From Catajapyx aquilonaris (lineage: Eukaryota): 64,000 bases of DNA. The translations under genes were made by a program, and so were the position numbers. The stretch lies in the NCBI GenBank assembly GCA_000934665.2, contig KZ538083.1, forward strand, positions 1-64,000, read 5' to 3'. Below the pieces are notes generated by a model, which saw only the letters and a list, made by a program, of their open reading frames with translations, was not told where the DNA came from and made no database searches. Shown here in pieces: positions 44,219-47,894 of the stretch (positions are counted from its first letter, which is position 1; every line of letters starts with the position of its first letter).

Positions 44219-47200
44219 TCAGTGCGGTGTTGGTTTGTGTCCATCAACATAAAAATTTCTGGTGGCCTGCGGGAGACGAACCACGATCCCTTCCAGCTCT
44301 TTCGTGAGGATTATCTGGCAGCCTTTAAATGAGAACAAGCAGTCTCTTATAAATATATCTTGCAACTTCTATCTGATGGGTACAATAAACATACCTAATC
44401 TGGAGTTTTCCTTGAGGAAAGGTGCCATGTCCAAGAGGTCATCTTCCTTCTCTTCTGATGCAGGTAAGCGATCAAAATACCCCCCTTCTACATACACATG
44501 GCAGGTGGTACACGCAAGAGATGCTTCACATGCTCCTGAATAAAAAAAAACACTCGTTAATAAATTTGCATTATTTTGCAAGAAGTGCAGGTCCTAACCT
44601 TCCATCTCAATCCCATATCGATGAGCAAGGTAAAGGACATTGTCACCAATCTTCCCTCTAATGGGATGCTTCTTGTCATCTTTATCAATGTATGTGATAT
44701 TGACGCTGTTGAATTAAAACATGAGTTCATCTTACTGAAGGACACTTAAGGCAAACTTGTGAAAATAATAACCACCCACACTTCCTCTTCCGATTTTGGA
44801 TCTTGAAACTCGTACTCGCCATGATTCAAGCCTGCAATTATAAACGTATGTTACCAATGTACAGGGTGTTAATATGGTTACATCAGAAATCTTGTGGAAG
44901 TGTAATACTAAGTAACAAAAGGAATGTGAATGTGTTTCTCTTTGTGGCTGGTTCTGTGAAACTTTTCAAGAATACAGCACAACCTCAGTGCTTGTGCCCT
45001 ACCATACACTGCTCCATGTTGCCAATTTAACCAGCGGAGGGGAGAAGCGAAACGCGCAAACGTCCGTCCTTGCCGGACTCTCTAGCCTGTCTGAAATCTG
45101 TCTGTTATAGCCGAATACACATGCCATATATTATGAAAGTATGCCAGGACCAGCCTTTCGAGTCTGTTATAGCCAAGGCTGTTATATCCTAATTCACTGC
45201 ATCACTGCAGTCAAGGAGTTCCCTTTCGCCTGCATCAGTGGGTCTCTGACCAGTGCCTAGGAGGTGTCTTGGCAACCTAGCCTCCTGGGGGACTGTAATT
45301 GACCCTTTTCAGACATTACACTTTCACCTGTGTCCCCTCCCCAAGAAACCCGCATCCTTACCCATATCCTTTCATCCCTGCACAGTGTTTGAAGAAAAAG
45401 AATAGAAAACTGAATGGAAGATGGTGGTAATCCACCCTCCTAAGAGGGCCTCTGTCCTATCATGGGATATCATTTTAAAAATAATTAAATCAACAAATTC
45501 AGAATGCAACTGCCAGGCCAGCAGAATCTAGACCTGAGAATATAGCTTTAAAAAAATGATAGTATGCTAAATACTGTGAAGATGAATAGATGACATCACA
45601 AGCATCACATAATGTCAAGTTACCCACACATACAAAAATCAAAAATACATAAATAAATATATCTCAAGCCTTTTTAACACAATAATTAAATTGATATTCT
45701 CAGCTGTGCACTTTGATTTATTCATAAAAATGTGAGAAATACAAGTGGCAACTTCTTCACTGGAATGAGGGTGCCACAGTGCAGAAATTGCAATGTCAAC
45801 ATGGAACTAGTTTCAAATCTAATTCAAATTGTCACTAAGAAATTAACTTCCTCTTTCTCTGTTTCTTAATTTATCTTCCAAAATGTATCACATCAGCCTG
45901 ACAATAGTCATAATGGGCCTTTCCTTGAGGGACTGATGATTAACACTGGAAATTTCTGTACCATTAAAAAGAAAATCCTCTACTTTCCCTTTACTGGTAA
46001 GTGTGGTAACCATAACCACCACCAGCATCATAAGCACCTCCTCCACCCGCACCTCCTCTCCCCCTCTCAAATCCCCCTCTTCCTCTCCCTCCTCCTCCCC
46101 TTCCCCCCCTCCTGACCTCATAACCATCATACTGCCTCTCCCCCTTTCCTCCCCATCCTCCTCCACCACCAGAGTACTCAGCACCACCAGAGTACTCAGC
46201 ACCACCTTGGGTCCAATTGCTCTGTCCTCTTCCTCCTCTCCCACCATACCCACCACTTGCACCTCTCTCAGCCCCACTCCCACCTCCCCTGCCACCACCC
46301 CACCCTCCACCACCTCTTCCTCCACCACCTTGAGGAGGTCCAGGTTGGCGCTGCTGCCAGCTGGGCATCTCTGGGGGCGGTGCCTGCATTTCATTTGGTC
46401 GCCCACCACGATCAGGCACCTGTCCCATGATAAACTTGTTGACAAGAGATTTGGTGTTTTTCCTTACTGATGCACTGCTGGTTTTCTCCAGGATGGTCAG
46501 ATCCTCTTGTGCTGCTAGCAAGTGATGAAGTCCAACTGATGGGGCCAGAGTTATGGCAACCCTTTTTGGGACATAAACCAGGGCCATCCGGTCTTCCCTG
46601 TCCTCCACTTGATAAGACCATGTAAAGGACTGGATGGTGACATCAAGCCTCTTGATTATCATTTCCCGCCTCATGGTATATTCCTGACACAACTCTGCTT
46701 GGATGTCACCGAGCTGACTCCATTGCTTGTCTGAGAGGACTCCAGTGAAAAGAGGTTTTCCCACCAGGTGGGGAGGGGCCTGCACTATCACATCTTGCAT
46801 CTTCTTTTCCACTTTTGAAAACAGCATTGCAGGGGTTATGTTTTCTGGGGGCTTAGTAAAGCCCAAGACTATCAGCATATCCTTCAGTTCCTTAGCAATA
46901 ATAGTCTCATCAAGTTCCACTTGCATTCCCATGTCCAGTTCAGGTTTGTTGACCACAATCATTCTTGCAGCTTGAAGTTCAGTGGTTAGGAAGTCAAGGA
47001 GAAGAAGCCGACTTCCCTTGTCCTGAAGGCGGCTGCTCAAGGGGCCTTCCATCAGAGGAGCATAAGGACAAACTAGCTCTTTGAGGAAACTGCTGACTTC
47101 CAGAACAAATGAGCTAGAATCATCTGGATTAGTCAAGGCATTGACTTGCTCTTCCAAACCACAGATAGCTTTCAGCTCGATGGAAAGCCATGCTACCACT

Positions 47201-47894
47201 TCAGTGTACTTCGTCGATTTGGGGCCACCTTCTAGCGCTTTCTCCAAGGTGCTTTCATCAAGTGATCCTGGATACCCCAAATCATCAAGGGAGTCGAGAA
47301 TGCCACTCTCCATGTTTGGTTCGGATGGCTACTCGATAACAGACCTGGCAAATATTCGTGCCTGTGCCCGTTCAACACTTGCCACCGGAAAGGGGTGAAA
47401 ATTGATTCAATGAAAGCTTACTTGGTGTGGTGTGAAGTGATCGGGTTGCAAGACATCTGTAAACCGGACGCCTTTGTGTTCCTCTCCGCACACTGGGCGC
47501 CTGCAATAATAATTTAATGTCATAAGTAAAGCAGGGGCAAATAGTGAATGTATTACTGCAATTAATTTATTTCACCAACAAAGCATTAAACTGTGACTAC
47601 CAGATATTCCTGTGCCCCTTCCAATTTTGGTCCATCGCATTCGTAAATACGTAAGTCACTTGAATGCGACGAAGTAACACTAAAAATATGCCTTTACGAG
47701 AGTCAACATTGCTTCTATCTGGACTATCCTGGTGGAATGAAGTTTAACAAGTTCCTCTCTATTCCCCCCAAACTGACCGTGGTGGAGGGTGACCCGCAGC
47801 AGACCTTCCACGCGACCCGGGCCAGAAGACCGATCCCGCGCTCGTTGATTTCCGCAGCAGGCAACATCCGCAGGAGGACCATGCGCGCCGCCAT
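44219..47894 (-). CDS. FDX2: Mitochondrial 2Fe-2S ferredoxin-2 (adrenodoxin-like), 6 exons
   Basis: Exons 47894-47778, 47500-47422, 44831-44780, 44705-44599, 44535-44395, 44322-44219, all phase-compatible. Arg-rich presequence ending [49 protein letters not shown]. Confidence 0.92.
45991..47313 (-). CDS. FAM98: FAM98 family protein (tRNA-ligase complex subunit, RGG tail); intronless, nested in FDX2 intron 2
   Basis: 440-aa single [81 protein letters not shown]-rich C-terminus. Confidence 0.95.
   Translation of the reverse strand: MESGILDSLDDLGYPGSLDESTLEKALEGGPKSTKYTEVVAWLSIELKAICGLEEQVNALTNPDDSSSFVLEVSSFLKELVCPYAPLMEGPLSSRLQDKGSRLLLLDFLTTELQAARMIVVNKPELDMGMQVELDETIIAKELKDMLIVLGFTKPPENITPAMLFSKVEKKMQDVIVQAPPHLVGKPLFTGVLSDKQWSQLGDIQAELCQEYTMRREMIIKRLDVTIQSFTWSYQVEDREDRMALVYVPKRVAITLAPSVGLHHLLAAQEDLTILEKTSSASVRKNTKSLVNKFIMGQVPDRGGRPNEMQAPPPEMPSWQQRQPGPPQGGGGRGGGGWGGGRGGGSGAERGASGGYGGRGGRGQSNWTQGGAEYSGGAEYSGGGGGWGGKGERQYDGYEVRRGGRGGGGRGRGGFERGRGGAGGGGAYDAGGGYGYHTYQ

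Follow-up and report, generated by a model that had tools for sequence, protein, structure and literature searches.

How a complete gene comes to lie in the sense orientation inside an intron of another gene, and from which promoter it is then expressed, is the question raised by a locus of Catajapyx aquilonaris at which an intron-free FAM98 gene occupies the second intron of a gene for an FDX2-type ferredoxin. The window analysed is the whole stretch of 64,000 nucleotides at positions 1 to 64,000 of contig KZ538083.1 (NCBI GenBank assembly GCA_000934665.2, forward strand), and all positions below are those of the window. A first-pass annotation, made from the sequence without database searches, had placed FAM98 on the same strand within FDX2 intron 2, and had suggested that one promoter may serve both genes and that FAM98 may be a retrocopy which captured the promoter of its host. 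Here, the nesting is confirmed as a real but ordinary gene-within-gene arrangement. The reading that we hold, with confidence somewhat above even, is that FDX2 as host and FAM98 as nested gene are separate genes of a pancrustacean arthropod, each of them functional.

Results

A spliced transcript contig places FAM98 within FDX2 intron 2

Six minus-strand exons of FDX2 join into an in-frame sequence of 600 nt, equivalent to 199 codons and a stop. All five introns begin with GT, four end with CAG and one with AAG, and in gene order they measure 277, 2590, 74, 63, and 72 bases. The FAM98 open reading frame (ORF; 47313-45991, minus strand) lies wholly within the 2590-base intron 2, and 108 intron bases (47421-47314) separate the exon-2 donor from the FAM98 ATG, a distance that the first-pass annotation had put at about 110. 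Every coordinate in that annotation was correct, and the FAM98 ORF is complete at 440 codons (Table 1).

A search for public sequencing runs gave none recorded as RNA and a single one, X1, whose kind of library is not on record; transcript evidence was drawn from this run, which contains a fraction of 0.21 of the sequence words. Against positions 42000-50000, 18 of its 85,611 contigs fit. One of these, a 1862-nt Logan contig (record 2), showed 0 differences on the listed pieces, and its joints omit 277, 2590, 74, 63, and 72 bases, with CT..AC ends on the plus strand; these are all five FDX2 introns, and they include the 47422>44831 junction that had been predicted. In the numbering of the contig, 130+1 letters fall between the exon-4 and exon-1 pieces, which fit exactly exon 3 (52) plus exon 2 (79), and there is therefore nothing extra at the 47422>44831 joint. 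On the 5' side of FDX2 the contig reaches as far as 47914, 20 bases ahead of the ATG, and has no extra letters there. It also continues into the plus-strand calponin-repeat exons of a convergent gene, with GT..AG introns, which is explained by the implied tail-to-tail overlap of the 3' untranslated regions (UTRs) of the two genes and by an unstranded assembler. Since it spans two genes, record 2 is an assembly and not a single RNA, and its depth is uninformative on FDX2 alone. The splicing pattern of FDX2 is proved by this contig, and together with the position of the ORF it locates FAM98 on the same strand between the presequence exons and the exons of the ferredoxin domain, as had been proposed.

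Table 1 Coordinates of the FDX2 and FAM98 features in the window
Feature	Positions	Strand	Remarks
Likely FDX2 promoter and 5' end, CpG- and G+C-rich zone	47650..48400	-	Spans FDX2 exon 1 and sequence 5' of it
FDX2 exon 1, coding part	47778..47894	-	39 codons, first part of presequence; ATG 47894 in caaacATGg; donor GT 47777
FDX2 exon 2	47422..47500	-	79 nt, second part of presequence; ends in phase 1; acceptor CAG, donor GTAAGC
FDX2 intron 2	44832..47421	-	2590 nt, contains whole FAM98 unit; joint in contig record 2, CT..AC ends on plus strand
Candidate FAM98 leader and start-site region	47314..47421	-	108 bases between exon-2 donor and FAM98 ATG
FAM98 coding region	45991..47313	-	440 codons and stop, no intron, Gly/Arg-rich C-terminal tail
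Likely FAM98 polyadenylation signal AATAAA	45717..45722	-	Implies 3' UTR of ~290 nt; T/GT-rich sequence 3' of signal; use inferred
FDX2 exon 3	44780..44831	-	52 nt; model and joints in contig record 2
FDX2 exon 4	44599..44705	-	Model and joints in contig record 2
FDX2 exon 5	44395..44535	-	Holds three of four cluster cysteines; human ferredoxin-2 match
FDX2 exon 6, coding part	44219..44322	-	Stop TGA 44221-44219; joint in contig record 2
Likely FDX2 polyadenylation signal AATAAA	44029..44034	-	Contig record 2 unbroken from 44321 down to 43678

The host gene encodes an FDX2-type ferredoxin

Single-exon pieces were used as queries for the identity searches of the host, with exon 5 giving the ferredoxin match. 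The exon-5 piece (46 residues) matched human mitochondrial ferredoxin-2 (8rmc_I, 2y5c_A) with an E value of 4e-18, as compared to ~1e-10 for yeast and other homologues and ~1e-8 for adrenodoxins, and with this short piece alone as the query the Pfam Fer2 profile gave an E value of 0.0015 and 18.8 bits, below its 21-bit cut-off. The likeness is far beyond chance and points to a product closer to FDX2-type than to FDX1/adrenodoxin-type ferredoxins. The fourth of the cluster-binding cysteines in the gene model is the first full codon of exon 6. Exons 1 and 2 encode 65 residues that include 10 Arg, 1 Lys, and 2 Glu and have no family match; their composition looks like that of a mitochondrial presequence, and we treat this segment as a putative one.

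Two further features of the host were noted. An ATG at 47904, 10 bases upstream of the FDX2 start, is out of frame and in a weaker context, lies inside the contig that reaches 47914, and would open a short overlapping upstream ORF for FDX2. Within intron 2, downstream of FAM98, the patch 44800-45450 has a CpG observed/expected ratio of 0.6-0.7 and a G+C content of up to 0.49; the fit of several X1 contigs there is only partial, with ends left loose at 45196 and a joint at 45341>45421 that is non-canonical. The patch has no match in Rfam, no further copy of it was found in the window, and it could represent an unannotated transcript or a dispersed repeat. An alternative FDX2 first exon in intron 2, near the CpG-rich part at 44800-45250, was considered and rejected, as reading from the ATG at ~45016 leads to a stop or to the wrong phase. 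Over 42000-50000 as a whole, Rfam gave 0 matches at E<=1, and hence no known intronic small RNA.

FAM98 is a conserved gene

The nested ORF matched Pfam family PF10239 (DUF2465) with an E value of 1.3e-116 and 389.6 bits (cut-off 30.5), residues 23-323 aligning to profile positions 2-301 of 302. The solved FAM98B chain 9i8v_D was matched with an E value of 1.1e-46, and on this likeness the protein is predicted to act as a subunit of the RTCB tRNA ligase complex. Arthropod FAM98 proteins come closest to it, at 66% identity or less, and the exact protein sequence has no entry in the protein collection. Among 11 other arthropod FAM98 proteins 85 columns are invariant, and the window copy agrees with 83 of them; its start lines up with the starts of the orthologues. 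A 40-row tree places the window copy within an insect-plus-malacostracan group (SH-aLRT 97), with the sister not resolved and with an end branch of 0.59 as compared to a median of 0.29. Judged from its sequence, FAM98 is intact and constrained, and somewhat fast-evolving.

Low-depth X1 contigs lie on the coding region at 46481-46742 (0 differences) and 46911-47262. The X1 contigs on FAM98 are confined to the coding region, with the FAM98 leader, the FAM98 3' UTR, and FDX2 intron 1 outside X1 coverage. It is because of the Pfam match, the retained invariant columns, the aligned start, and these contigs that we judge the gene to be functional.

A second FAM98-like contig of X1 over 46911-47262 bears on whether this is the only working copy. 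It is 95.5% alike and differs at 15 listed places, with 8 codons changed synonymously and 5 nonsynonymous changes. Were it a paralogue, a working FAM98 could reside elsewhere and the nested copy could be a young duplicate that is redundant, narrowly expressed, or decaying, and the long end branch of the window copy would fit such a history. The nested copy is, however, intact and keeps nearly all of the invariant columns, FAM98 is strongly CpG-depleted, as in an old, methylated gene body, and the variant contig may instead be a divergent allele. We regard a young duplicate as improbable. Both X1 contigs differ from the window at 47056, and for this reason X1 is not identical to the assembly. 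The variant contig stems either from a divergent allele or from a paralogue, which could be the parent gene; no second FAM98 copy was found within the window.

The CpG-rich domain covers the starts of both genes

The CpG observed/expected ratio is 0.75-1.01 in 47650-48400, as compared to 0.45 in the whole window, with a G+C content of 0.52-0.56. By part, the ratio is ~1.0 at 47650-48100 and 0.75-0.85 from there to 48400, remains 0.66-0.75 as far down as 47200, and drops to 0.0-0.2 across the body of FAM98. This CpG-rich domain covers both starts, and it therefore fits either a promoter for each gene or one promoter for both. The 108-base leader region contains no ATG, has 5 CpG, and carries a TCT-like string, CCCTTTCC, at 47394 and TTCCGG at 47390. 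Among the core-promoter strings sought in 47250-48400, no TATA, DNA replication-related element (DRE), Ohler 1/6/7, or initiator plus downstream promoter element (Inr+DPE) was found, and the only matches were the TCT-like 8-mer and two copies of TTCCGG.

The proposal that one promoter may serve both proteins can be set against these data. According to it, all transcription starts at the FDX2 promoter; splicing of intron 2 then yields FDX2, and cleavage at the FAM98 AATAAA yields an RNA made of exons 1-2 and FAM98, from which FAM98 is translated via leaky scanning or reinitiation. The exon-2 donor is only 108 bases from the FAM98 ATG, a single continuous CpG-rich domain extends over the FDX2 and FAM98 starts, and the one canonical poly(A) signal on the host strand in the intron means that some host transcripts should end there; from the FAM98 stop to FDX2 exon 3, the minus strand has no AATAAA or ATTAAA other than the FAM98 signal. 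A weak acceptor-like site (…tttgccag, 47345) 77 bases after the exon-2 donor would define an intron near the 63-74 bases of the small FDX2 introns, and intronic retrocopies are known to recruit 5' exons of their hosts, as reportedly described by Vinckenbosch and colleagues in 2006.

The difficulty with this proposal lies in translation. An RNA that is read from the FDX2 ATG and retains intron 2 has an 81-codon ORF with its stop TGA at 47374-47372, 58 bases before the FAM98 ATG, and the two ATGs stand in identical contexts (caaacATGg), so that the context of the FDX2 ATG is as good as that of FAM98. Reinitiation after ORFs as long as 81 codons is generally inefficient, and the upstream ORF is therefore a poor route to FAM98 protein from FDX2-started RNA. 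Splicing at the weak 47345 acceptor would in turn open an out-of-frame ORF overlapping the FAM98 start. No X1 contig links FDX2 exon 1 or 2 to FAM98, but since none covers the FAM98 5' end, this weighs neither for nor against the proposal. On the argument from the upstream ORF, one promoter for both genes appears disfavoured. Transcription of FAM98 solely from the FDX2 promoter is accordingly held to be unlikely, though with some weight of its own; a single CpG-rich promoter that feeds both genes, FDX2 by splicing and FAM98 by cleavage or trans-splicing, with coupled outputs that are mutually exclusive per transcript, is rated as quite unlikely.

The upstream-ORF problem would be removed in an operon-like arrangement, in which the FAM98 mRNA is freed by spliced-leader trans-splicing just upstream of its ATG and is then polyadenylated. 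Spliced leaders are in use in some crustacean lineages, the window copy falls in Pancrustacea in the FAM98 tree, which does not resolve the order, and 31 bases ahead of the FAM98 ATG there is an AG accompanied by a short run of pyrimidines. This acceptor is weak, however, no spliced leader was found, the FDX2 contig ends at 47914 without added letters, and nothing in the data indicates trans-splicing in the organism; we consider this arrangement highly improbable. A separate FAM98 start site is the reading that, on balance, we favour over a shared promoter.

The intron-free state of FAM98 appears derived

Vertebrate FDX2 and FAM98 genes are unlinked, and vertebrate FAM98 genes have multiple exons. 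Eighty FAM98 loci (382 kb), taken from eukaryotic sequence among metagenome contigs, were compared with the window gene, which has 0 introns in 440 codons. Introns between colinear matches were present in 30 of the 80 loci, and a further 36 consisted of a single exon-like piece stopping inside the domain while the DNA continues. Nine were uninterrupted over at least 270 residues, six of them on contigs of 1.2-2.3 kb that are possibly transcripts, and the structure of the remaining 5 was unclear. The positions of the interruptions recur among the intron-bearing loci, and in L026 and L030, whose exons come closest to the window gene (43-66% identity per exon), they fall near residues 63-82, 170-176, and 230. 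Relative to its nearest sampled relatives, the intron-free state of the window gene is, on this comparison, derived, and it is therefore compatible with a retrocopy.

The strings at the FDX2 exon-2 and exon-3 acceptors (47499-47512 and 44830-44843; family D17) are identical at 13 of 14 bases and were considered as a target-site duplication. This candidate was rejected: the insert would then have no poly(A) end, and the reading frame depends on exon 2, because exon 1 ends in phase 0 and exon 3 starts in phase 1. Chance similarity of two AT-rich acceptors is the more likely explanation.

A tblastn search of the FDX2 model against the 80 FAM98 loci gave 0 matches at E<=0.01, and a lenient run gave nine at chance level (E 1.5-9.9), in a set where 17 of the 80 loci have at least 1.7 kb downstream of FAM98 and where presequence exons are undetectable in this way. 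These results hint that nesting of FAM98 in FDX2 is not general among the sampled loci.

Neighbouring genes

The convergent calponin-repeat gene occupies 42600-44160 on the plus strand (exons …42730, 43384-43605, 43680…; Pfam Calponin, E 5e-11), and AATAAA signals at 44136 (plus) and 44034 (minus) imply that its 3' UTR and that of FDX2 overlap tail to tail by ~150 bases. On the other side, ~1 kb upstream of FDX2, a divergent plus-strand gene at 48942-52589 has a GT..AG joint at 49089>49286 in X1 and ORFs of 177 and 811 residues without a Pfam match; this gene and FDX2 may have the CpG-rich zone in common, which would then act as a bidirectional promoter. Farther away, a CACHD1-like VWFA/cache gene lies at 30681-34683 (plus), whose ORF at 31804-33609 has its best match, of 47% identity, in horseshoe crab. 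Three large ORFs were labelled by eye only, as a mucolipin-type channel (22932-25423, plus), a pogo-type transposase (2173-3147, minus), and a retroelement integrase (18317-19138, plus).

Discussion

The account of the locus favoured here begins with FDX2, which is transcribed from what is probably its promoter, the CpG-rich zone near 47.9-48.4 kb. Splicing removes intron 2 with FAM98 inside it and joins the presequence exons to those of the ferredoxin domain. FAM98 most likely starts within ~120 bases upstream of its own ATG, a stretch that comprises the last bases of FDX2 exon 2 and the beginning of intron 2 and lies within the same CpG-rich domain, and its transcript most likely ends at the AATAAA at 45722. 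FDX2 transcription must pass through this signal, and by such read-through some host transcripts probably end there as a by-product. As to how the arrangement arose, FAM98 most likely arrived in the intron as an RNA-derived copy, or else lost all of its coding introns.

Several points weigh against this account. The motif matches at the candidate start site are weak, the TCT-like 8-mer being expected ~0.3 times in the 1150 bases scanned, and there is very little room for a core promoter of FAM98's own, which would overlap FDX2 exon 2 and its donor. The CpG-rich domain runs on from the FDX2 promoter, and a shared promoter fits it equally well. No start site of FAM98 was seen in the transcript data, the X1 contigs stop short of the FAM98 5' end, and the transcript support for the spliced host amounts to one contig from one run of unrecorded library type. 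The hallmarks of a retrocopy are also missing: no flanking direct repeat was found in 44800-47600 and no A-run after the FAM98 AATAAA, so that a poly(A) tract and a flanking duplication are both wanting, and no parent gene is shown. Finally, uninterrupted FAM98 occurs on three long genomic contigs of other organisms. The suggestion of a retrocopy has therefore held up in one respect, as the gene is intron-free where the 30 interrupted loci, including the closest, are not, and has failed in another, as neither a poly(A) remnant nor a flanking direct repeat is present. Such marks may have been lost through decay. Stepwise intron loss, or movement at the DNA level of an already intron-free gene, are possible alternative origins.

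The claim that most nested genes are antisense can be compared to Drosophila melanogaster, for which Lee and Chang (2013, PMC3814207) report that nearly 10% of genes are nested, 71.27% of them on the opposite strand and ~28.7% on the same strand. The claim is supported by the first of these proportions, while the second makes same-strand nesting only mildly unusual. In the same survey, 72.53% of the same-strand nested genes have a single exon, for which its authors invoke selection against mis-splicing (PMC3814207). The FAM98/FDX2 locus matches this same-strand, single-exon pattern exactly: the guest sits in one intron of an unrelated host, on the same strand and with no coding intron, and the host is broadly needed. 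It differs in that the guest here begins 108 bases after the host donor and is a conserved gene of housekeeping type, not a young, testis-biased one.

The products at this locus are relatives, at the level of orthologues, of human FDX2 (8rmc_I, 2y5c_A) and of FAM98B of the tRNA ligase complex (9i8v_D; PMC8668186). Judged by title and start of abstract, the literature matches listed included no paper on FDX2 as a nested gene and none on nesting of a FAM98 gene, and none of those for FAM98 and intronless concerned gene structure. Intronic retrogenes that use the promoters or 5' exons of their hosts have reportedly been described by Vinckenbosch and colleagues (in 2006) and by Kaessmann and colleagues (in 2009). 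The locus resembles such retrogenes in that an intron-free copy of a normally multi-exon gene lies in sense orientation close behind the 5' exons of its host. It is unlike them in its lack of a poly(A) remnant or target-site duplication, and neither a chimeric transcript nor a parent gene is shown here.

The locus provides a transcript-backed case in which one housekeeping gene, itself conserved, lies in the sense orientation within a short intron of a second one. For annotation, it means that the FDX2 model must here jump over a complete gene. If the reading with a shared promoter were true, the output of a mitochondrial Fe-S ferredoxin and that of a subunit of the tRNA ligase complex would be coupled. 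The geometry forces the RNA polymerase of the host through the promoter region and the poly(A) signal of the guest, and the locus is therefore a compact natural test case for competition between splicing and polyadenylation and for transcriptional interference; beyond this value as a test case, it agrees with existing knowledge of arthropod nested genes.

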